Positions 22,600-63,939 of a stretch of 64,000 bases of DNA are shown here, piece by piece; the first letter of the stretch is position 1; each line of letters begins with the position of its first letter. The notes under the pieces were generated by a model. It saw only the letters and a program-made list of their open reading frames with translations, had not been told where the DNA came from and searched no databases. Where the stretch lies: assembly GCF_058153355.1 (NCBI RefSeq), contig NZ_CM177019.1. One strand, 5' to 3'. The position numbers were made by a program, and so were the translations under genes.

Positions 22600-22770
22600 G
22601 CCGGAAAAGCAGGCACCTGCCGTCTGAACGGTATCGATCCGGAAGCGTATCTGCGCCATATTCTGAGCATACTGCCGGAATGGCCCTCCAACCGTGTTGA
22701 CGAACTCCTGCCATGGAACGTAGTTCTCACCAATAAATAAGCGTCAATACGGTGCTCCGTTGACGCTGAT
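22600..22770 (+). mobile_element. IS66-family transposase 3' remnant and terminal repeat tip
   Basis: Encodes ...GIDPEAYLRHILSILPEWPSNRVDELLPWNVVLTNK*, matching the C-terminus of the intact IS66-family TnpC at 41197-42768; end sequence resembles the IS66 terminal repeat. Confidence 0.7.
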
Positions 22771-24280
22771 ATGACTTTCCGTGTCAAACCGGAATCTCTA
22801 ATTTTGACGATTTTCTTTTTAGGTTTAATTCCCTGAGGGCGACGTAGCAGTAAATCCGACGGTGAATCACGCTGATATTCGCGGGTTGGATACCGCATTA
22901 CAGAGGTCCGTCATATGAGCCTGCCACTTTCTTACGTCGCGAATCAGCTTTGTTCCGCCGTCGCCAAGCGCTAACGTGGGTTACTCTTGTACCGGGCTAC
23001 GTCGCCTTCAGGGAACTGGTTATTCTCATTTTTTATTTGTGACATTGTGGTTGTTGTGCGACAGACATTGCTATTCGGCCCATATCCCAGATAAAACCCG
23101 CCAGCTCACGTGCAACAGCAACAATTGTAATATTGACATTCTTTCCTTTGGCCTGAAGTTTTCGATACCTCTTACAAAGCCTGAGTTGAGCATCCCATGC
23201 TCTGTCAATGACGGGGCGGGGTAAATTTTCCTGCCTTTTTTGTATTGCCGGACTGATGCGTGCCGGATGACGGTAACTCCACGCTGCCTCGACCAATAGC
23301 TTTCTGGCATAGCTGTTTCCGGCTTTGGTAATGCTGCCCTGATGTCTGCTTCCACCCGATGAATATTCTGATGGCGTGATACCAAACCATGACATCAGTT
23401 GTCGTGGATGTTCAAAACGGGTCAGATCACCCAGTTCAGAAATTAATCCAACCGCAGTAATAAACTGAATCCCTCGCATGGCTTGCAGCGCCTCTACTAC
23501 CGGATACAGCCTCCATTCGGTAACGGCCTCCTTCAGGGCGGATTCCAGCCGTTCACATTGTGCCTGCCGGTCTTCTATTGTACGACGGTGTTCGTCAAAA
23601 GCTAATTGTCGCCAGGGACTTTCGAATGAGTATTTGCTGAGCCAGCGTCGGTGTGCAGGGCCCCAATCTGCTCGCCCGACATAATGGACCCCATGAACCA
23701 GAAGAAACGATTTCAGACGTTGCCTTGCATGCCGTAAATCATCGCGGGCAGATGCCCATGCCCGGGCCAAATCCCGGAATGCCTCATCTTCAATGCCGGG
23801 TACGTAGACAGCAGAAAGATCTCCTGCACGCAGTGAACGCACAAGTCTGATGGCATCACGGCGATCGGTTTTAACCCGCTCCCCCGGTTTTTTCGGGATA
23901 AGTGAGGGGGCGCAGACCATGCAGTCAAAACCGGATTTCACCAGCCGACGATAAAGTCCATAACCACAGGGCCCCGCTTCATAAACGATACTGACCTGCG
24001 ATGACTTTGACCTGAGACGTTTACAAAGATTCTGAATATCAGTAGGTGATGTGCCAATTTTACCCATCAGTTCAACAGGTTCTGAATTGATAGCATAAGC
24101 GACAGTAATCGATTCTTTGTGAACATCTAACCCGACGTACAATGTGTTATTGTTGTTCATGCTGGCCTCCGTGGTGGAAATACCGGGGTGTAGCAACAGC
24201 TCACCCATGCGGCTCTGACAACGATGTTAACCCGCGTTAAATATCCCACGTTGGCCAGCATCTGTCTCACGGAAAGTCAT
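22771..24280 (-). mobile_element. IS110-family insertion sequence, copy 1 (about 1,510 bp, 13-bp imperfect terminal inverted repeats ATGACTTTCCGTG)
   Basis: Identical to copy 2 at 54561-56070 in inverted orientation; ends atgactttccgtg (22771) and cacggaaagtcat (24268-24280). Confidence 0.85.
23033..24160 (-). CDS. IS110-family DEDD transposase/recombinase
   Basis: ORF 23033-24208; start set at MNNNNTLYVGLDVHK; N-terminal RuvC-like DEDD region (GLDVHK, YEAGPCGY, DRRDA) and C-terminal IS110 domain (ITKAGNSYARKLL). Confidence 0.88.
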   Translation of the reverse strand: MNNNNTLYVGLDVHKESITVAYAINSEPVELMGKIGTSPTDIQNLCKRLRSKSSQVSIVYEAGPCGYGLYRRLVKSGFDCMVCAPSLIPKKPGERVKTDRRDAIRLVRSLRAGDLSAVYVPGIEDEAFRDLARAWASARDDLRHARQRLKSFLLVHGVHYVGRADWGPAHRRWLSKYSFESPWRQLAFDEHRRTIEDRQAQCERLESALKEAVTEWRLYPVVEALQAMRGIQFITAVGLISELGDLTRFEHPRQLMSWFGITPSEYSSGGSRHQGSITKAGNSYARKLLVEAAWSYRHPARISPAIQKRQENLPRPVIDRAWDAQLRLCKRYRKLQAKGKNVNITIVAVARELAGFIWDMGRIAMSVAQQPQCHK

Positions 24281-24398
24281 ACTGCCTTACCTTTTCTCAG
24301 GCTATTTTTGCTTTTTTTTGCTTTTCCCCGCCACTTTATGGTGATTATCACATCAATATACATCGATAGATATTAACGTAACTGAAGTGAGGTGAAGC

Positions 24399-25613
24399 AT
24401 GAAATTTGAACGCCATCATGAAATATTGAAACGACTCAGTAAATTCGGTTCTGTAAAAGTATCCGATCTGTCCAATAGCCTCAATGTAACGAAAGAAACT
24501 ATTCGTTCAGATCTTAATGAACTTGCCAGGCTTGGCTATCTGACTCGATGTCATGGCGGTGCTTTTATCGTCCTAGACTCGCTTGATACTATTGCGAAAA
24601 ATGAAATCGCTTATGCGCTTGAAAATTATGATACAGCCCAGGGAATAAAAAAAGGCCACTCAACTATGAAAAGTCAAGTATGCGTTATTGGTTCGTTTAA
24701 TGTTGATATCATCAGTTATTTGCCGAGGCTTCCCACTATCGGAGAATCGCTTCTGGCAAGTAATTTTATATTTTCACCGGGGGGAAAAGGCTGTAACCAG
24801 GCGCTGGCAGCAAGCTTTGCCGATACTGATGTTTATTTCATAACAAAAGTAGGTACAGATCACTTTAGTGATTATGCGATCAACTTTATGAATTCGTCTA
24901 AGATTTATAAAAGTATAATTTATCAAACGAAAGAAACGCAAACCGGAACTGCCACGATCCTTGTTAATGAAGGTACTGGCGATAATGTTATTGCGATCTA
25001 TCCCGGTGCCAACATGACAATGTCGTCCGATGAAATAACTATTCAGAAAGAAGCGATTATTAATTCTGATGTCATACTTCTGCAGCTCGAAACAAATTAT
25101 ACCGCTCTGCAACAAGCGATCACATTGGCGCAAAAAAACAGTATCCCGGTCACTATTAACCCGGCACCCTATAATGATATCGTCAACGAACTTATTCAGG
25201 ATGTTGATTATATCACCCCCAATGAAACAGAAGCTGGTTTACTGTCCGGCATAGACGTACACGATCTTGAATCAGCTAAACGAGCTGCAGAAGCTATCCA
25301 CAATAAAGGGGTAAAAAACACGGTTATCACGCTCGGTAGCAAGGGCTCGCTCGCATTTGATGGCAAAAAATTCATTCATTCGCCAGCGTTTCCAGCGGTC
25401 GTTAAAAATACGGCAGGAGCCGGGGATGCGTTTAACGGCTCTCTGGCATCAGGACTTGCGAAAGGAAAATCACTGGAATCAGCACTGTGTTATGCCAGCG
25501 CCTTTGCATCCCTAGCGGTGGAGACAAGCAATGCTTCCGACATGCCTGAACATGAATCTGTGATACATCGAATTCAGAGTATACATTATCAGCAAACTAT
25601 TTTTACGCATTAA
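24399..25613 (+). CDS. DeoR-type HTH regulator fused to a PfkB/ribokinase-family sugar kinase domain
   Basis: 404-aa ORF; N-terminal 60 aa HTH (VSDLSNSLNVTKETIRSDLNELA), then PfkB motifs (GGKGCNQA; NTAGAGDAFNGSLA). Confidence 0.75.
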   Translation: MKFERHHEILKRLSKFGSVKVSDLSNSLNVTKETIRSDLNELARLGYLTRCHGGAFIVLDSLDTIAKNEIAYALENYDTAQGIKKGHSTMKSQVCVIGSFNVDIISYLPRLPTIGESLLASNFIFSPGGKGCNQALAASFADTDVYFITKVGTDHFSDYAINFMNSSKIYKSIIYQTKETQTGTATILVNEGTGDNVIAIYPGANMTMSSDEITIQKEAIINSDVILLQLETNYTALQQAITLAQKNSIPVTINPAPYNDIVNELIQDVDYITPNETEAGLLSGIDVHDLESAKRAAEAIHNKGVKNTVITLGSKGSLAFDGKKFIHSPAFPAVVKNTAGAGDAFNGSLASGLAKGKSLESALCYASAFASLAVETSNASDMPEHESVIHRIQSIHYQQTIFTH

Positions 25614-25626
25614 GAAGGGACAGAGA

Positions 25627-26385
25627 ATGAATAACACCAAAAAATCACTAAAAGTGCTCTTTATTGGGGAATCCTGGCATATTCATATGATTCATTCAAA
25701 AGGATATGACAGTTTTACCTCAAGTAAATATGAAGAAGGTGCGACCTGGTTACTCCAGTGTCTGAAAAATAGTCAGGTAGATGTCACCTATATGCCAGCA
25801 CATACGGTACAAATTGCCTTCCCTGAAGATGTGGCACAGTTAGAACAATATGATGCCATCGTTATTAGTGATATTGGTAGTAATACTTTCCTGCTACAAA
25901 ATGATACTTTTTATCAGCTTCGCATAAAACCAAACGCTCTCGAACTGATTAAAGAATATGTGAATAACGGTGGTGGGTTATTGATGATTGGCGGCTATCT
26001 CTCATTCATGGGAATTGAAGCAAAAGCCAATTATAAAAATACAGTTCTGGCTGATGTGCTCCCGGTTACGATGTTAGATGGTGACGATCGTGTCGAAAAA
26101 CCAGAGGGTGTTATTGCACAGCCATCACAACCTGAACATCCAGTTATTAAAGGGTTCTCTGAATATCCTTTTTTCCTAGGTTATAACCGGGCGATCGCTA
26201 AAGAAAATGCTGAGGTGGTATTAACAATAAACAACGCTCCATTACTGGTCTTTGGTAACTATCACAACGGGAAAATAGCCTGCTTTATGAGTGACTGTTC
26301 ACCGCACTGGGGTACACAGCAGTTTATGTCCTGGCCGTTCTATACCGCGTTGTGGGTAAATATACTGACTCATATTGCAAGATAA
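25627..26385 (+). CDS. ThuA-like / class I glutamine amidotransferase-like protein
   Basis: 252-aa ORF; family assignment by recognition of the overall sequence pattern, not verified. Confidence 0.55.
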   Translation: MNNTKKSLKVLFIGESWHIHMIHSKGYDSFTSSKYEEGATWLLQCLKNSQVDVTYMPAHTVQIAFPEDVAQLEQYDAIVISDIGSNTFLLQNDTFYQLRIKPNALELIKEYVNNGGGLLMIGGYLSFMGIEAKANYKNTVLADVLPVTMLDGDDRVEKPEGVIAQPSQPEHPVIKGFSEYPFFLGYNRAIAKENAEVVLTINNAPLLVFGNYHNGKIACFMSDCSPHWGTQQFMSWPFYTALWVNILTHIAR

Positions 26386-26441
26386 TAATAATAATGGGGT
26401 AACTCCAGTTACTCCATTTACTATAATAGAAGGATTGATGT

Positions 26442-27407
26442 ATGAAAAAGAATAAGTACTCAACTCCCTTATGGATGCTTGCCACGATTCTTGCGGGTAT
26501 GCTCTCCCCTATGCAATCAGCGGTGAATGGTCAATTAGGTCACTGGTTACAGGATGGTAATGCATGCGCAGTTATCTCCTTTGCCAGTGGTTTAGTCGTG
26601 ATGTTTTTTATTATTATGGCGCGAAAAGAAACCCGGCAACAATTTGCGGCAATTCCTTCTCTGATTAAAAACCGAAAAGTTCCTCTCTGGAACTGGTTTG
26701 CCGGTCTCTGTGGAGCGATGGTGGTATTTTCTGAAGGCGCATCAGCCAGCGCACTCGGGGTCGCAACGTTTCAAACCGCACTGATCTCCGCGCTATTGCT
26801 GTCTGGTTTACTTTGCGATCGCTTTGGTATCGGTGTCGACGAGAAAAAATACTTTACCCCTTATCGCATCATCGGTGCATTATTTGCGGTTATTGCTACG
26901 ATTTTTGTTGTGTCACCTCAGTGGCATTCTACCTCTTTCATCTTACTTGCCATTCTTCCGTTCTTAGCTGGTTTGCTTGCAGGATGGCAGCCCGCTGGAA
27001 ATGCAAAAGTAGCTGAAGCTACGGGATCCATGCTGGTTTCAATCACCTAGAATTTCATCGTTGGATTTTGTGTTTTAGGCACAGCGCTAGCTATTCGTGT
27101 CGCATTAGGGCACGTCACTGTTCAATTACCAGATGTCTGGTGGATGTATCTTGGCGGCCCGCTTGGACTAATGTCTATCGGTTTAATGGCCATTTTGGTC
27201 AGAGGTCTGGGGTTACTGATGCTGGGGGGTGCTTCAACGGCGGGCCAGTTACTGGGATCAGTATTGATTGACGTATTAATTCCATCGCTGGGCAATAGCG
27301 TTTATCTGGTCACGATCATCGGAACACTGTTTGCACTGGTCGGTGCAATTGTTACCACTATTCCGGAATACAGAACCTCGAAAACAATGAAGAAAATGGA
27401 GGTATAA
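26442..27407 (+). pseudogene. DMT-superfamily (YdcZ/DUF606-like) membrane transporter interrupted by an in-frame TAG
   Basis: Two same-frame ORFs (26442-27050, 27144-27407) separated only by TAG at 27048-27050; frame stays open and hydrophobic across the stop. Confidence 0.65.
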
Positions 27408-27483
27408 TCATGAAAGATTATCTACAAACTGTGACGGGCCCCGTCGCCCGTGAAGATATGGGGCTAACACTTTGGATTTGCCC

Positions 27484-28389
27484 CTATATTTCCAGACACC
27501 TGTTATCACTTAACCCATTACTGGCCTGCTGCCGCAGATATTCCCGTGGCGAGCGATAACCCAGTGCACTATGCGGATGCCATTCGTTATAATGCTCGAA
27601 CGCCTCTGCAAGGTTCTTTGCTGCCGTTAACCCGTCTGGTTTAGGCATGATACTGATGTAGTCACGCTTTATCGTTTTCACGAAGCTCTCTGCTATGCCG
27701 TTACTCTCCGGACTCCGCACCGCCGTGTTCTTCGGTTCAAGCCCCAACATCCGGGCAAACTGCCGTGTTTCATTAGCCCGGTAGCATGAACCATTATCCG
27801 TCAGCCACTCTACTGGAGACGCCGGAAGCTCGTTGCCGAAGCGGCGTTCCACCGCTCCCAGCATTACGTCCTGTACTGTTTCACTGTCGAAGCCGCCCGT
27901 AGTGACTGCCCAGTGCAGTGCCTCACGGTCACAGCAGTCCAGCGCGAACGTGACTCGCAGTTTTTCTCCGTTATCACAGCGGAACTCGAACCCGTCAGAG
28001 CACCATCGTTGATTGCTTTCTTTCACGGCCACTTTGCCAGTATGTGCCCGTTTCGATGGCGGTACAGCGGTTTTTCGCTCAAGCAACAGCGCATTCTGGC
28101 GCATGATCCGGTAAACACGTTTGGCATTGATCGCAGGCATACCATCAAGTTCGGCCTGTCTGCGAAGCAGCGCCCATACCCGACGATAACCATACGTGGG
28201 CAGCTCTCCGATAACATGGTGTATACGGAGAAGCACATCCGTATCATCTGAGTGACGGCTGCGGCGACCATCTTTCCAGTCATCGGTTCGTCTGAGAATT
28301 ACGTGCAACTGCGCACGCGACACCCGGAGACAACGGCTGACTAAGCTTACTCCCCATCCCCGGGCAATAAGGGCGCGTGCGCTATCCAC
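27484..28389 (-). CDS. insD: IS2 transposase OrfB (InsD, DDE integrase domain)
   Basis: 301-aa ORF recognised as IS2 OrfB. Confidence 0.9.
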
Positions 28390-28712
28390 TTTTTTGCATG
28401 CCCGTATTCAACGGCTTCTTTAAGGAGTTCATTTTCCATCGTTTTTTTGCCGAGCAGGCGCTGGAGTTCTTTAATCTGCTTCATGGCAGCAGCAAGTTCA
28501 GAGGCAGGAACGACCTGCTCTCCTGCGGCCACAGCAGTAAGACTTCCCTCCTGGTATTGCTTGCGCCAGAGAAATAACTGGCTGGCTGCCACACCGTGTT
28601 GCCGGGCAACAAGGGAGACCGTCATTCCCGGTTCAAAACTCTGCTGAACAATAGCGATCTTTTCCTGTGTAGTACGCCGTCTGCGTTTCTCCGGTCCTAA
28701 GACATCAATCAT
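28347..28712 (-). CDS. insC: IS2 OrfA (InsC, HTH)
   Basis: [41 protein letters not shown]; overlaps orfB in the -1 frame. Confidence 0.9.
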
Positions 28713-29789
28713 CTGCTCTCCAATGACTAGTCTAAAAACTAGTATTAAGACTATCACTTATTTAAGTGATATTGGTTGTCTGGAGATTCAGGGGGCCAGT
28801 CTACACTTCCTCATGAACATCTGTTCAACGATCTTTCCTCTGTTGTGGATGCTCCTTGCTATCCTTTTTCACAACGGCTTGTTGATAAAAAAGTCACGGC
28901 AGAAATCCAGTGGGCATTAAAACACGATCCTTATTGCTGCGCTGATAATATGGACCGCAAACCTATTGAAGATGTGATCTTCGAAATTAATAACTTTATC
29001 TCGCTCGGTGGTCGCACCATTATTGATGCCACAGGGTCTGAGTCTATCGGACGAGATGCGCAGGCATTACGAGAAGTCGCATTAAAAACAGGTCTGAATA
29101 TTGTTGCTTCCTCCGGTCCCTACCTGGAAAAATTTGAAAACCAGAGAATTCATAAAACGGTTGATGAACTGGCGACAACGATCGATAAAGAATTGAATCA
29201 AGGGATTGGCGATACGGATATTCGTGCCGGAATGATCGGTGAAATAGGTGTTTCACCGACATTTACCGAAGCCGAGCATAACAGCTTGCGGGCTGCCTCG
29301 CTGGCACAGATTAACAATCCTCATGTGGCGATGAATATTCACATGCCGGGCTGGCTTCGTCGCGGTGATGAAGTACTCGACATTGTGTTAGGTGAAATGG
29401 GCGTCTCGCCAAATAAAGTCTCTCTCGCACACTCGGATCCGTCAGGAAAAGACGTGGCGTATCAGCGGAAAATGCTTGATAAAGGTGTCTGGCTGGAATT
29501 CGACATGATTGGCCTAGACATTACCTTCCCGAAAGAGGGAATAGCGCCAGGGGTGCAGGAGACTGCCGATGCCGTCGCTCATCTCATTGAGTTGGGATAC
29601 GCCGATCAGCTTGTTCTCAGCCACGATGTCTTCCTTAAACAAATGTGGGCTAAAAATGGCGGTAATGGCTGGGGATTTGTTCCAGATGTTTTTCTGGCCT
29701 ATCTGGCGGAGCGCGGCGTCGATAAAACGATCCTCAAAAAACTCTGTATCGATAATCCCGGACGATTATTGACCGCATAAAACCATTAT

Positions 29790-29812
29790 CCCCCGGCACA
29801 TTGCGCCGGGGG
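29790..29812. terminator. Hairpin between the Php-like gene and the ggt fragment
   Basis: CCCCCGGC acattgc GCCGGGGG. Confidence 0.5.
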
Positions 29813-29819
29813 ATGTCAA

Positions 29820-30150
29820 TTAATACCCCGCCGTTAAATCATCCACCAAGCGCGAGTCGGATGCGCCGTACAACTCACCATCCGACCCAACCATAATGCT
29901 TTGCGTGCTGCCCATCGCCTCATTCAGCGCCACTTTCTGACCTTTTGCATCCAGCAGCTTGAGCGTATCCGGACTAAACCCTTTTCAACACGCAGCTCGT
30001 CCGGCAACCACTGATAGTGGAAACGAGGCGCATTGGTCGCTTCGGCAACATTCATTCCACAATTGATGCTGTTCACCACCATTTGCAGCACGGTAGTGAT
30101 GATCCAGCTACCGGTAACAAAGTGAGTACATAAAGGCCATACTGTCACGA
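29820..30150 (-). pseudogene. ggt: Gamma-glutamyltranspeptidase 3' fragment (frameshifted, 5' end missing)
   Basis: Minus-strand peptides ...IITTVLQMVVNSINCGMNVAEATNAPRFHYQWLPDELRVEKG and, in another frame, ...DSRLVDDLTAGY* match the GGT C-terminus; fragment abuts the ISL3-like element. Confidence 0.7.
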
Positions 30151-31907
30151 ACAGTGCAAAAGTGGCTCTTCCGCAACCTGGGTGAAGATTTTCATGCCAG
30201 TGGACTCATTACCCTCCGCCTAAGTAGTTCAAGTCCGGCTCGACCATACATCTGGCGTATCAGCACCTTCAGGCGATTTACATGACCTTCGACAACACCA
30301 GTACTCCAGCGACTGCTGATTGCCTCACATATAGCCGCAGCATCAGCTTCCATCCCCGCAGCTACGCACCGAAGTTCTGCTGAGCCGCTTTCGTGGACCC
30401 GAGTGAACCAGCTGCTTAGCTGTGATTTATTTTAGGTTTTCAGAATACGGTAGAACTCGAGTACCAGTTGCTGCGCTATTTTCAACTCCGGTTCTTTTTC
30501 ACACATCAGACTAATAAATCGGAAAGCATAATTTTCTTCACCCCTGATTATTCTCCAGGGCATCAACCAGCGGCTTACCCGGGACACTGAAGGAAGTCTT
30601 GCGGCAGTAGTAACCGGTGGGATCCAGCCTTTACGCCATTTGGCAACAGCATCCCTGACGATGGTTTCACTGCCTGTAACCCCCCTGGCCACCATTTCCC
30701 GCCATATCCGGCCGGAGTTATAATTACCACATTCTCGTTGCTCTTTTAACCACTCCCTCCATGGGTCCAGAAGCCCTCGCTTTGGAGGCCTAGTTGACAT
30801 TTCAGGGAATGTTCCTGAACCCACCCAGCGACTGACTGTCACTCGCGACAGGCCTGTAATACGGGATATTTCCCTGAAACTACATCCCTTGTTATGCAGG
30901 GCCATAACCTCTGTCCAACGCTGATGCCGTTTTTTGCGGATGTGCTGTTTAAGGCGTTCCAGACGACGGAGCGATGCTACAGGCACAGATATTTCTGGCT
31001 CAGGTGATTTCTTCAGTGATAACTCTCTGACAACAAGACGTATCAGAGGCATATGTCTGTACATCATTCGTTCAGGCTCATCACCAATATTTTTTAGCAG
31101 GTGCCATCGATCGGCCACCTGTCTGGCCTGAGGTGCACCTTCACGTGCTGCTGTCGCATAGACTCCACTGCGATCACGCGAGACAACCTGTATTTCCGGA
31201 TATTTTCTGAACCAGGTCGCCAGCGTACGCTGATCACGGCCGGGAAGCAGGACGAGGGGACGGTGAGTATCAAGATTGACTATTAACATACCGCAGCAGT
31301 GGCCCCGATGCCACGCCCACTCATCAATACCGACATGAGGCGCGCCTGACTGTTTCGTCTCCGGGGTATTGATAACCCTGCGAAGAAGAGTATCAGCACT
31401 GCAACGGAGACCCGCTGCCGTTGCAGCCCGTTTTCCAGCCTCACCTCCAGCTATTAATCCCAGTTGACGTTGTAAATTTTGTAACGCCTGTGAAGACTGC
31501 TGGTGTGAACCGGCGAAGGGAGCAAGCGACTCGGCAAAAATTTTACGTGAACAAGCCGGGTTACGGCAGTACCAGTGGCGGACGGAAAATACAAGCCATA
31601 GCGTCTGCCCTGAGCAGGGTAGATGCTGTATCCGGCGCCGACGACAACTATGAACAGAGTCGCTACGCTTAAAGCATTCAGGACATTGTGCTGTTTTGCG
31701 TTTTCCGTGGAGATGGAGGGTTATACCGTCAGAGCTAATAATTTGTCGACTGCATCGCCATCCGCAAGGTAACTGTAGAAGTGTCTTAAGAGAGTGCATT
31801 GCGTTGCCCATAACTTAAAACAGCTTAGATCCTTGTTCGCCAGAAAGTTTCATCCATTTTCTTCCACCCAGGTTGCGGAAGAACCACTTTTCATCCGTCG
31901 TTGACAG
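30142..31907 (-). mobile_element. ISL3-family insertion sequence with about 43-bp imperfect terminal inverted repeats
   Basis: Ends ctgtcacgaacagtgcaaaagtgGCTCTTCCGCAACCTGGGTG (30142-) and its inverted complement ending at 31907; encloses the transposase ORF. Confidence 0.75.
30432..31811 (-). CDS. ISL3-family transposase
   Basis: 459-aa ORF with N-terminal zinc-ribbon pattern (CPECFKRSDSVHSCRRRRIQHLPCSGQ...RHWYCRNPACSRKIFAE) typical of ISL3 transposases. Confidence 0.8.
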   Translation of the reverse strand: MGNAMHSLKTLLQLPCGWRCSRQIISSDGITLHLHGKRKTAQCPECFKRSDSVHSCRRRRIQHLPCSGQTLWLVFSVRHWYCRNPACSRKIFAESLAPFAGSHQQSSQALQNLQRQLGLIAGGEAGKRAATAAGLRCSADTLLRRVINTPETKQSGAPHVGIDEWAWHRGHCCGMLIVNLDTHRPLVLLPGRDQRTLATWFRKYPEIQVVSRDRSGVYATAAREGAPQARQVADRWHLLKNIGDEPERMMYRHMPLIRLVVRELSLKKSPEPEISVPVASLRRLERLKQHIRKKRHQRWTEVMALHNKGCSFREISRITGLSRVTVSRWVGSGTFPEMSTRPPKRGLLDPWREWLKEQRECGNYNSGRIWREMVARGVTGSETIVRDAVAKWRKGWIPPVTTAARLPSVSRVSRWLMPWRIIRGEENYAFRFISLMCEKEPELKIAQQLVLEFYRILKT

Positions 31908-32094
31908 ATGTGAAGTATGCGGGAGAAAAAGTGAATATCTAACTGTAATAACTCAGACCGGTACGAGTACTCGGAACGTCTACAATCATTCAGGGCAAAG
32001 TGCTAAAATTTCTCTATCCCGGGATGCCCCTACCAACGCAGCACTCCCGGAGATATCATTACAGCTCTGCAACTGATTTCCGCGACTGAACCGC

Positions 32095-54490: not shown

Positions 54491-54552
54491 AAAAATCTAA
54501 GCTCAGAAAACGGATTAAAGTAAAAATCTAAGCTCAGAAAACGGATTAAAGT
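54491..54552 (+). repeat. Perfect 31-bp tandem duplication (2 copies) abutting the left end of IS110-family copy 2
   Basis: aaaaatctaagctcagaaaacggattaaagt at 54491-54521 and again at 54522-54552. Confidence 0.9.
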
Positions 54553-54560
54553 AAGGCAGT

Positions 54561-56070
54561 ATGACTTTCCGTGAGACAGATGCTGGCCAACGTGGGATAT
54601 TTAACGCGGGTTAACATCGTTGTCAGAGCCGCATGGGTGAGCTGTTGCTACACCCCGGTATTTCCACCACGGAGGCCAGCATGAACAACAATAACACATT
54701 GTACGTCGGGTTAGATGTTCACAAAGAATCGATTACTGTCGCTTATGCTATCAATTCAGAACCTGTTGAACTGATGGGTAAAATTGGCACATCACCTACT
54801 GATATTCAGAATCTTTGTAAACGTCTCAGGTCAAAGTCATCGCAGGTCAGTATCGTTTATGAAGCGGGGCCCTGTGGTTATGGACTTTATCGTCGGCTGG
54901 TGAAATCCGGTTTTGACTGCATGGTCTGCGCCCCCTCACTTATCCCGAAAAAACCGGGGGAGCGGGTTAAAACCGATCGCCGTGATGCCATCAGACTTGT
55001 GCGTTCACTGCGTGCAGGAGATCTTTCTGCTGTCTACGTACCCGGCATTGAAGATGAGGCATTCCGGGATTTGGCCCGGGCATGGGCATCTGCCCGCGAT
55101 GATTTACGGCATGCAAGGCAACGTCTGAAATCGTTTCTTCTGGTTCATGGGGTCCATTATGTCGGGCGAGCAGATTGGGGCCCTGCACACCGACGCTGGC
55201 TCAGCAAATACTCATTCGAAAGTCCCTGGCGACAATTAGCTTTTGACGAACACCGTCGTACAATAGAAGACCGGCAGGCACAATGTGAACGGCTGGAATC
55301 CGCCCTGAAGGAGGCCGTTACCGAATGGAGGCTGTATCCGGTAGTAGAGGCGCTGCAAGCCATGCGAGGGATTCAGTTTATTACTGCGGTTGGATTAATT
55401 TCTGAACTGGGTGATCTGACCCGTTTTGAACATCCACGACAACTGATGTCATGGTTTGGTATCACGCCATCAGAATATTCATCGGGTGGAAGCAGACATC
55501 AGGGCAGCATTACCAAAGCCGGAAACAGCTATGCCAGAAAGCTATTGGTCGAGGCAGCGTGGAGTTACCGTCATCCGGCACGCATCAGTCCGGCAATACA
55601 AAAAAGGCAGGAAAATTTACCCCGCCCCGTCATTGACAGAGCATGGGATGCTCAACTCAGGCTTTGTAAGAGGTATCGAAAACTTCAGGCCAAAGGAAAG
55701 AATGTCAATATTACAATTGTTGCTGTTGCACGTGAGCTGGCGGGTTTTATCTGGGATATGGGCCGAATAGCAATGTCTGTCGCACAACAACCACAATGTC
55801 ACAAATAAAAAATGAGAATAACCAGTTCCCTGAAGGCGACGTAGCCCGGTACAAGAGTAACCCACGTTAGCGCTTGGCGACGGCGGAACAAAGCTGATTC
55901 GCGACGTAAGAAAGTGGCAGGCTCATATGACGGACCTCTGTAATGCGGTATCCAACCCGCGAATATCAGCGTGATTCACCGTCGGATTTACTGCTACGTC
56001 GCCCTCAGGGAATTAAACCTAAAAAGAAAATCGTCAAAATTAGAGATTCCGGTTTGACACGGAAAGTCAT
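54561..56070 (+). mobile_element. IS110-family insertion sequence, copy 2 (inverted relative to copy 1)
   Basis: Ends atgactttccgtg (54561) and cacggaaagtcat (to 56070); internal sequence identical to copy 1 over all inspected ORFs. Confidence 0.85.
54681..55808 (+). CDS. IS110-family DEDD transposase/recombinase
   Basis: Same 375-aa protein as copy 1; GGAGG RBS at 54671. Confidence 0.88.
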   Translation: MNNNNTLYVGLDVHKESITVAYAINSEPVELMGKIGTSPTDIQNLCKRLRSKSSQVSIVYEAGPCGYGLYRRLVKSGFDCMVCAPSLIPKKPGERVKTDRRDAIRLVRSLRAGDLSAVYVPGIEDEAFRDLARAWASARDDLRHARQRLKSFLLVHGVHYVGRADWGPAHRRWLSKYSFESPWRQLAFDEHRRTIEDRQAQCERLESALKEAVTEWRLYPVVEALQAMRGIQFITAVGLISELGDLTRFEHPRQLMSWFGITPSEYSSGGSRHQGSITKAGNSYARKLLVEAAWSYRHPARISPAIQKRQENLPRPVIDRAWDAQLRLCKRYRKLQAKGKNVNITIVAVARELAGFIWDMGRIAMSVAQQPQCHK

Positions 56071-56740
56071 ATCAGCGTTAATGGAGAATCATATTGATGC
56101 TTATTTATTGGTGAGAACTACGTTCCATGGCAGGAGTTCATCAATACGGTTGGAAGGTTATTCCGGCAGTACGCTCAGGATATGGCGCAGATACGCTTCC
56201 GGATCAATGTCGTTCAGAAGGCAAGTGCCGATAAGCCCATACAACAGTGCACTGCGCTCGCCGCCGAAGAACATAAAGTTTTTATTTCCGAGACAGATGG
56301 CACAAAGGGCTTTTTCCGCGGCATTATGTCTGCCTCCGCCTGACCGTCAACACTGTAATAACAGAGTGCGCCCCACTGATTCAGTACACAGCTGAACCAT
56401 TCTCCCAGTCTGGATTTTTGGATAGCGTGGCATTTTTCTCCACCATGCATGCAGTGAGTCCAGTAACAGTTTGCTCTTCTTCTGCCTGACCACAAGATGT
56501 GCTGGACTGGTAAACGATGGGGATACCTGCTTACGCGAGAGCAATAAGTGGCTGGCCACAATTCTCGGTACAAAACTCTGCTGAATAGCAGCGATTTTCC
56601 CAGCGTGGTGCGTCGTTTGCATTTTACTGGTTCTAAGTTAACAATTATCTGTTCACTAATGACTACTCTAAAAACTTGTATCAGGACTATCACTTATTTA
56701 AGTGATATTGGTTGTCTGGAGATTCAGGGGGCCAGTCTAT
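56071..56740 (-). mobile_element. Composite IS remnant: IS66-like tnpC 3' fragment plus IS2-like terminal fragment
   Basis: 56071-56400 encodes an IS66 TnpC C-terminal tail on the minus strand, about 85-90% identical to the remnant at 22600-22770; 56650-56740 is an IS2-type terminal repeat (GGGGGCCAGTCTA). Confidence 0.65.
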
Positions 56741-61454: not shown

Positions 61455-61530
61455 TGGCTCCTCTGACTGGACTCGAACCAGTGACATACGGATTAACAGT
61501 CCGCCGTTCTACCGACTGAACTACAGAGGA
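61455..61530 (-). tRNA. asnV: tRNA-Asn (GTT anticodon)
   Basis: Minus-strand 76-nt sequence TCCTCTGTAGTTCAGTCGGTAGAACGGCGGACTGTTAATCCGTATGTCACTGGTTCGAGTCCAGTCAGAGGAGCCA. Confidence 0.95.
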
Positions 61531-63863: not shown

Positions 63864-63939
63864 TGGCTCCTCTGACTGGACTCGAACCAGTGACATACGG
63901 ATTAACAGTCCGCCGTTCTACCGACTGAACTACAGAGGA
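63864..63939 (-). tRNA. asnU: tRNA-Asn (GTT anticodon), second copy
   Basis: Same 76-nt minus-strand sequence as 61455-61530. Confidence 0.95.

Follow-up and report, generated by a model that had tools for sequence, protein, structure and literature searches.

The locus examined here raises the question of what has become of a transporter gene that is interrupted by one stop codon and is otherwise open: whether it is still in use, whether the stop is a recent accident or an artifact, and how the stop arose. The window, by which we mean the whole 64,000-nt stretch of DNA that was analyzed (from contig NZ_CM177019.1 of assembly GCF_058153355.1), carries on its plus strand a frame of 321 codons, from 26442 to 27407, that terminates with TAA at 27405–27407 and contains a sole internal stop, TAG, at codon 203 (27048–27050). 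Retranslation confirmed the description in an earlier note, made from the letters of the sequence, of a transporter frame that is continuous apart from this codon. The list of open reading frames breaks the frame in two, one part covering 26442–27050 (202 aa) and the other an in-frame ORF that begins with ATG and covers 27144–27407 (87 aa). Codons 204–234 were searched for an in-frame ATG, GTG, or TTG and none was found, the first start being ATG 27144 (Met235). Codons 1–202 (26442–27047, plus strand) encode the complete first 5-TM repeat, TM6, and a loop as far as ...GSMLVSIT, and the untranslated rest (27051–27407, plus strand) comprises codons 204–321, encoding TM7–TM10, and the terminal TAA.

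Homology on the two sides of the stop indicates a single protein family. Compared with Pfam, the full translation matches DMT_YdcZ (PF04657) twice (E=3e-45; 154 bits, with a cut-off of 24), the first repeat at residues 10–154 and the second at residues 169–303, and the stop lies about one quarter of the way into the second. The 202-aa N-terminal part by itself gives E=5e-32, the second repeat gives E=2e-16 when the Trp is restored, and the 87-aa tail alone still matches the family (E=6e-5). A chance open frame is excluded because PF04657 homology flanks the stop on both sides. NCBIfam has no model for the transporter, nor for the GATase1_like protein encoded next to it. An AlphaFold model of the intact allele is an all-helical bundle of 10 helices of moderate confidence (pLDDT 70, pTM 0.69), in which W203 falls within a predicted helix, residues 197–221, that corresponds to TM7. 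In a Foldseek comparison with the PDB, the top 30 matches are all DMT-fold transporters with TM-scores of 0.5–0.64, the best of them being 6oh3, 5y78, 7paf, and 5i20 (0.58–0.64). From this moderate-confidence model, the transporter is predicted to have the 10-TM DMT fold with two inverted 5-TM repeats, and the earlier assignment to the DMT family of permeases agrees with both the predicted fold and the two PF04657 matches.

The identity of the original codon is clear from intact alleles. In UPEC strain 536 the protein is intact at 321 aa (WP_000739817.1) and codon 203 is TGG, from which the window differs by a G>A transition at 27049; TGG is also found in nine further sampled genomes. Trp203, which stands within the conserved motif TGSMLVSITWNFIVGF, is invariant when 22 full-length homologs are aligned, these belonging to Citrobacter, Salmonella, Klebsiella, Pectobacterium, Proteus, Anaerobiospirillum, Bifidobacterium, and Lactobacillaceae. 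More broadly, 116 of the 120 homologs retrieved, from Salmonella to Lactobacillaceae, have Trp at this position; of the remaining four, one has Arg, one is the truncated product from E. coli, and two are alleles with frameshifts. The earlier note had named as contrary evidence orthologs that also end at this codon, with a separate gene downstream; this arrangement was looked for in alignments of 24 and 120 homologs, which rule it out. TGG was one of its three guesses at the original codon (CAG, TAC, or TGG) and is the correct one, as judged by the intact E. coli alleles and the Trp of the homologs. Since intact E. coli alleles carry TGG, the stop is indeed a nonsense mutation of a sense codon, with the features of a nonsense pseudogene: a stop at a codon that is sense in intact alleles and in orthologs, and homology that resumes in frame beyond it. 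Apart from the stop, the window's frame is little changed, at 99.6% identity to intact alleles. Downstream from the stop, the homolog alignment also reveals a T>G change at 27229 (plus strand; GTT>GGT, V263G) within a conserved LGV/LASTAGQ motif, at a residue that is V or L in every aligned homolog; among the sampled genomes, NT1F10 alone has the same change as the window.

Of 5426 complete E. coli genomes, 2123 have the 966-nt frame at 95–100% identity, with the annotation “DMT family transporter”; in more than 2000 the DNA is collinear over the full 966 nt and 99–100% identical. It is the third gene of four, in the order rikA, GATase1_like, DMT, phosphotriesterase-related. In the window, rikA (24399–25613, plus strand) is intact and encodes a ribokinase-like kinase of the PfkB family that is fused to a DeoR-type HTH (PfkB E=6e-64, HTH_DeoR E=3e-15); PGAP names this kinase “ribokinase RikA,” and in NCBIfam it scores under the ribokinase equivalog cut-offs. 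The GATase1_like gene (25627–26385, plus strand; PF07090 E=1e-111) is also intact, and the phosphotriesterase-related gene, whose product matches PRK09875 weakly, starts at 27411, 3 nt past the stop codon of the transporter. The gene order of PfkB/DeoR kinase, GATase1_like, DMT, and phosphotriesterase-related is conserved in the window, in E. coli genomes, and in the description of the Salmonella cluster. Judged by sequence, the transporter is orthologous to STM3549 of Salmonella, and the cluster to STM3547–STM3550, with rikA corresponding to STM3547, the GATase1_like gene to STM3548, and the phosphotriesterase-related gene to STM3550. Ribose kinase activity has been demonstrated for RikA, and the other three genes of the cluster are without known function (McCormick et al. 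2026, PMC13432705); the literature found to mention STM3549 (PMC13432705) reports neither a function nor a substrate for it. In MG1655 (K-12), the CP4-44 element lies between cobU and tmaR, and the rikA cluster is absent at the locus. The cluster is a horizontally acquired islet amid IS remnants. The flank of the window from 1 to 24000 is 100% identical to strain VL7S7, in which the island is differently arranged and less decayed. A scan of 24200–30000 for promoters and terminators found sites no commoner than in shuffled sequence.

The distribution of the two codons was determined in the same 5426 complete E. coli genomes with 55-mers centered on codon 203, a design in which each 28-nt megablast seed spans the variable base. 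The TAG 55-mer occurs in 610 genomes and the TGG 55-mer in 1430. Carriers of TAG include O104:H4 and O121 strains, and their sources, spread over several continents, include humans, pigs, poultry, cattle, water, and wild birds; in every sampled carrier the RefSeq/PGAP annotation gives a pseudogene with an internal stop. All 14 of the TAG copies sampled (the window included) are on one haplotype with linked markers across the four genes, and one of them is a 3' recombinant. The markers of the TAG haplotype are T477 and G857 in the transporter gene; T108, G402, G1032, and T1042 in rikA; and G132, G291, and C611 in the GATase1_like gene. Across the four genes, diversity within the TAG group amounts to 1.06 differences per kb (maximum 2.4), compared with 4.05 per kb against B2-type alleles. 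Because it is common to a large and diversified lineage, the stop is old enough to have been inherited lineage-wide and is not private to a strain. The same observations, 610 genomes with O104:H4 and O121 among them and a haplotype diversified by approximately one difference per kb, are at odds with the earlier description of the mutation as “very recent.”

The history of the allele is not entirely simple. A synthetic query that joined the B2-type marker to the stop (G477+A608) had zero exact matches in the 5426 genomes, and recurrence of TAG on the B2-type haplotype was rejected on this basis. The converse combination, T477+G608, which represents TGG in the TAG haplotype, has an exact match in four genomes, and all four genes of the cluster are intact in the three of these that were examined. 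Further, two of the TGG genomes, SW07096 and AF43, have the derived A277 and C372 of the phosphotriesterase-related gene in common with the TAG genome DETEC-E223, and these shared derived markers make a strictly single origin untenable unless at least one reversion, hotspot recurrence, or short-tract recombination has also occurred. TAG is nearly fixed in its haplotype (610 genomes vs. four with TGG), and its spread accompanied that of the lineage.

The position of the mutation suggests how it arose. The intact transporter gene contains exactly one CCWGG (Dcm) site, CCTGG at nt 605–609, and the mutation is the change of nt 608 from G to A within it, which converts CCTGG to CCTAG opposite the inner, methylatable C of the bottom-strand CCAGG. 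The remnant, CCTAG, occupies 27046–27050, and its bottom strand, CTAGG, is a CTWGG deamination product. Nonsense codons could arise in this gene through 124 different single-base changes, 30 of them transitions, and among these the nt 608 G>A change alone falls at a Dcm 5mC position. The T:G mismatches in the CTWGG/CCWGG context are deamination products targeted by very-short-patch repair (PMC2715241). In the mechanism we propose, the bottom-strand 5-methylcytosine of CCTGG/CCAGG would have deaminated to give CTAGG and escaped very-short-patch repair by Vsr, leaving G>A at 27049. Dcm is widespread in E. coli. The most likely origin of W203* is thus 5-methylcytosine deamination at the sole Dcm site of the gene, an origin that we infer from the position of the mutation alone, as we do the methylation of the site.

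The expected consequence of the stop is severe. Translation would end at the start of TM7, leaving a product of TM1–6 in which only one of the second repeat's five helices remains; because both inverted repeats build the DMT transport cavity, as judged from the fold, the truncated product should be unable to form it. Indirectly, the evidence points to a dead allele, and some residual function may persist given the 99.6% identity elsewhere in the frame. Effects may also extend beyond the transporter. The ribosome-binding site of the downstream phosphotriesterase-like gene lies within the last codons of the transporter, and the stop leaves 357 untranslated nt ahead of this tightly coupled gene, which makes Rho-dependent polarity plausible; polarity of W203* probably lowers expression of the phosphotriesterase-like gene.

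Decay of the cluster is not confined to the stop. At least 10 independent secondary lesions are present across the clusters of the 14 sampled TAG genomes; eight of these genomes have further cluster lesions, nearly all of them distinct, and six retain the other three genes intact, with the caveat that sequencing or assembly errors may account for some of the single-base frameshifts in genomes assembled from long reads. The transporter itself has lost 1 nt at nt 39 in EH08-18-36 and is interrupted by IS3 at nt 92 in 2-C14-1, and among the 14 genomes TAG alleles also show A43T and R142C at family-invariant residues. Lesions elsewhere in the cluster include, in rikA, a 1-nt deletion at nt 129, a G6>G5 contraction at nt 385, and the loss of 4 nt at nt 972; in the GATase1_like gene, IS1, the loss of 1 nt at nt 117, and the gain of 2 nt at nt 207; and in the phosphotriesterase-like gene, insertions of IS2 and IS3 and the deletion of 14 nt. 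Two of the 10 TGG genomes are damaged (UTI89, and strain 572 through an IS1-mediated deletion), so that the excess of lesions with TAG (8/14 vs. 2/10) is in the expected direction but, in this small sample, not significant (Fisher p=0.10). The transporter has been lost by other routes as well: Q25* (CAA>TAA) occurs in 39 genomes of the UTI89/NU14/UM146 type, together with a G6>G5 frameshift in rikA, and further independent knock-outs in other lineages involve IS1 and IS3 events.

In the window, the additional lesion is an IS2 insertion. The first 20 codons of the phosphotriesterase-related gene (27411–27472, plus strand) are cut off by a 1331-bp IS2 on the minus strand (27473–28803), with a 5-bp target duplication, CACTT, at 27468–27472 and 28804–28808. 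The remainder of the gene (28804–29780, plus strand) continues from ...TLPHEHLF with its metal-binding HxH motif kept and is open from a TTG at 28776, which lies within the end of IS2; in strain 201805972, the corresponding ORF after IS2 is annotated by PGAP as a 334-aa protein. The exact IS2 junction occurs in only 2 of 5426 genomes, and the insertion is therefore recent. The IS2 hit pointed out in the earlier note is thus real, but it costs the neighboring gene only 20 codons and its native start, leaving the body open. The wider suggestion of ongoing inactivation holds, the cluster having been knocked out repeatedly and independently by IS elements, frameshifts, and Q25*. Since W203* arose, the rest of the cluster has gone on decaying through separate events, namely frameshifts, deletions, and insertions of IS elements, and the IS2 in the window is one of these.

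Taken together, these data lead us to interpret W203amber (TGG>TAG) as an inherited loss-of-function allele of a 10-TM DMT_YdcZ-family transporter, with a probability of about 0.87. As a nonsense pseudogene passed down within a lineage, in an accessory islet rich in IS elements, W203* is ordinary, and RefSeq already flags its internal stop.

Several other accounts of the stop deserve consideration. The one to which we still allow a small chance is that W203* is a selected loss that recurs at the Dcm hotspot with occasional reversion, or else that low-level read-through of the UAG sustains a trickle of transporter. If true, the lone CCTGG would be a slow, reversible on/off switch of the transporter across E. 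coli lineages, with the four TGG genomes inside the TAG haplotype group as a trace of it. Another adaptive account, which we rate slightly lower and regard as improbable, is that W203* rose because import of the substrate is costly in some niches. Near fixation in the haplotype (610 vs. four genomes) accords with such an advantage, as does the independent loss of the same gene through Q25* in the 39 UTI89-like genomes and through IS1 and IS3 elsewhere. However, hitch-hiking and drift of a dispensable, horizontally acquired, IS-flanked islet predict the same pattern, and TGG has been kept in 1430 genomes.

It has also been suggested that the amber codon is suppressible, and a gene in use could be maintained if a natural suppressor tRNA, or leakage at UAG-A, allowed enough full-length transporter to be made. 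The 118 codons past the stop are still open and 99.6% identical to intact alleles, six of the 14 sampled TAG genomes have the remaining three cluster genes intact, and an A immediately after the stop (UAG-A) is a context reported as favoring amber suppression. Basal leakage at UAG-A may occur. A supE44-type glnV 55-mer is found in 158 of 5426 genomes, and the 40 matches listed, which include C600, DH1, JM109, TG1, and J53, are all K-12 laboratory derivatives or transconjugants, and the K-12 strain MG1655 is without the rikA cluster at the locus. Natural TAG carriers are for this reason not known supE backgrounds, and we consider supE suppression in nature unlikely, supE44 having been seen among the matches listed only in K-12 laboratory derivatives or transconjugants. 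The window itself contains two tRNA genes, both for tRNA-Asn. Further, Trp203 is almost invariant, so that insertion of Gln, Tyr, or Lys may not restore function, and TAG alleles have gained a frameshift, an IS3 insertion, A43T, R142C, and V263G. The restriction of the stop to a single haplotype of E. coli, and its absence from other homologs, argue against programmed recoding. With TAG alleles decaying and supE44 seen, among the matches listed, in K-12 laboratory derivatives or transconjugants, the proposal of a suppressible or read-through stop finds no support here, and we regard functional read-through as quite improbable.

Less probable still, and in our view very doubtful, is a working split or half transporter, formed by the 202-aa product alone or as a dimer, or by its pairing with an 87-aa fragment re-initiated at Met235. 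Single-repeat proteins of the YdcZ type exist, the 202-aa product contains a complete PF04657 repeat (residues 10–154, E=5e-32), and the truncated ORF is common, with 685 member sequences in cluster P0114. Against this, the stop falls inside the second repeat (residues 169–303) and not at the boundary between repeats; TM7 would be lost, since codons 204–234 offer no in-frame start; and GGTGG directly abuts ATG 27144, where normal Shine–Dalgarno spacing is absent. Moreover, the 5+5 halves of DMT proteins are inverted, and a half of fixed topology would be unlikely to act as an antiparallel homodimer. The N-terminal part has also been hit (the 1-nt deletion at nt 39 and the IS3 at nt 92). A clean split of the domains into two half-transporters was rejected, given a stop within the second PF04657 repeat and no start before Met235. 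Finally, an otherwise nearly undamaged gene might suggest that the mutation is very recent and private to one strain, or that it is an error of sequencing or assembly. This has a negligible chance of being correct, as the same TAG with its flanks, down to an identical 55-mer, is found in 610 independent complete assemblies, which represent many serotypes, hosts, and countries, on a diversified haplotype annotated by RefSeq with an internal stop in each sampled carrier, and as O104:H4, O121, and many unrelated isolates contradict restriction to one very recent clone.

Reading W203* as an inherited loss-of-function allele has practical implications. For annotation, neither the 202-aa nor the 87-aa ORF should count as a gene. 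Through W203*, about 30% of the complete E. coli genomes with the cluster are naturally null for the transporter, and the Q25* clade adds more; for comparison with the TAG haplotype, four near-isogenic TGG genomes exist, among them NB4833, SW07096, and AF43. W203* is thereby of modest practical value as a natural null for work on the rikA/STM3547–3550 pathway, and it is a clean natural instance of the mutational signature of Dcm 5-methylcytosine.

Comparison with known systems places the allele in several contexts. In fold, the transporter is predicted to be like the solved DMT transporters YddG (5i20), LicB (7paf), TPT (5y78), and the CMP-sialic acid transporter (6oh3), and like the DMT_YdcZ family it matches PF04657, as two tandem repeats. 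E. coli YdcZ is a single-repeat protein of ~150 aa; in contrast, the window protein is a fused double repeat that is cut inside its second repeat. The closest described counterpart is the STM3549 cluster of Salmonella Typhimurium, in which the transporter is 93% identical over its full length and the four genes have matching order and Pfam families; however, STM3549 is intact, with Trp at the equivalent position, whereas the copy in the window carries W203* and V263G and has a downstream neighbor cut by IS2. The mutation itself resembles the classical Dcm hotspots, such as the lacI amber hotspots at CCAGG that are subject to Vsr repair, in its CCWGG context, in the G>A change opposite the inner C, and in its amber outcome. 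It differs from them in that the lacI-type change is CAG>TAG, whereas here TGG became TAG on the strand opposite the deaminated C, and in that the event and the methylation are those we infer. Q25* of the UTI89/NU14/UM146-type genomes is likewise a single-base nonsense mutation in the same gene and is inherited within a clade, but it affects another codon, lies off the Dcm site, is on a B2-type haplotype, and has a much lower frequency. W203* is thus the same in kind as other lineage-fixed nonsense or IS-disrupted pseudogenes of E. coli accessory islets.

Four genomes carry the haplotype on which the transporter's Trp203 codon is otherwise replaced by TAG, and yet have TGG at that position; in all three of those examined (NB4833, SW07096 and AF43; loci L032-L034), the four genes of the cluster are intact. 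Two of these genomes, SW07096 and AF43, share the derived downstream markers A277 and C372 in the phosphotriesterase-like gene with one TAG genome, a pattern that implies that the codon reverted, that the Dcm site mutated more than once, or that a short tract was exchanged by recombination. In two homologous proteins from different species, the E. coli-like P0094 and the Citrobacter-like P0120, the reading frame shifts immediately after Thr202 (...SITEFHR and ...SITELHR, respectively). Both frameshifts are compatible with a 2-nt deletion at the Dcm site itself (CCTGG/CCTAG), so mutations of different kinds may tend to arise there; alternatively, the two could be assembly artefacts.

The transporter has a second, independent nonsense allele, Q25* (CAA>TAA), found in UTI89 (locus L016, 3921-4886) and fixed in UTI89/NU14/UM146-type strains (39 genomes). 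This allele is accompanied by a frameshift in a G run of rikA (G6>G5), which two genomes of the TAG-type haplotype have as well. In the window, rikA (24399-25613) has a strong match to a DeoR-type helix-turn-helix (HTH) domain over its N-terminal 56 residues (Pfam, E=3e-15), and the conservation of this domain suggests that RikA is a fused regulator-kinase. Met90 has been proposed as the translation start of Salmonella RikA (PMC13432705), in which case the HTH domain would be lost.

An IS2 copy (27473-28803) cuts the phosphotriesterase-like gene, at a cost limited to its first 20 codons. The remainder (28776-29780) is still open, beginning at a TTG within the IS2 end and continuing as ...TLPHEHLF with the HxH motif kept; PGAP annotates the equivalent ORF as a 334-aa protein, and IS2-derived signals could still drive expression of the gene. 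The region directly after the cluster (29800-32000 and flanks; homologous to L001, 8043-10034) contains a gamma-glutamyltransferase fragment, together with a pseudogene for an ISL3 transposase that carries an internal stop. Because TAG-type and B2-type genomes have both in the same decayed state, this part decayed before the haplotypes split.

The transporters of Enterobacteriaceae and of Gram-positive gut and food bacteria are 64-68% identical, and neighborhoods were compared at L025 and L027 (Lentilactobacillus, Bifidobacterium) and L029/L030 (Anaerobiospirillum). The transporter gene always adjoins a GATase1_like gene and a hydrolase gene, the latter phosphotriesterase-like in Proteobacteria but CBAH (Ntn amide hydrolase) in Lactobacillaceae/Bifidobacterium. 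The regulator varies (LacI, AraC or DeoR-kinase). Thus, the conserved core comprises amidotransferase-like protein, transporter and hydrolase, with the kinase outside it. These comparisons give a hint of horizontal transfer and of a substrate that contains an amide or a lactone.

On either side of the entire island (∼24286-54500) lies a copy of an IS110-family element (∼22768-24285 and ∼54522-56229; annotation ISSso6-like), the two in opposite orientations; strain VL7S7 has only one at this locus. The sbcB-side flank is 100% identical to that of VL7S7 over 24 kb, but the ∼30-kb island, between tmaR and cobU, has the opposite orientation. Beyond cobUST, two minus-strand tRNA-Asn (GUU) genes (61455-61530 and 63864-63939) match the asn tRNA cluster that adjoins the same integration hotspot in K-12.
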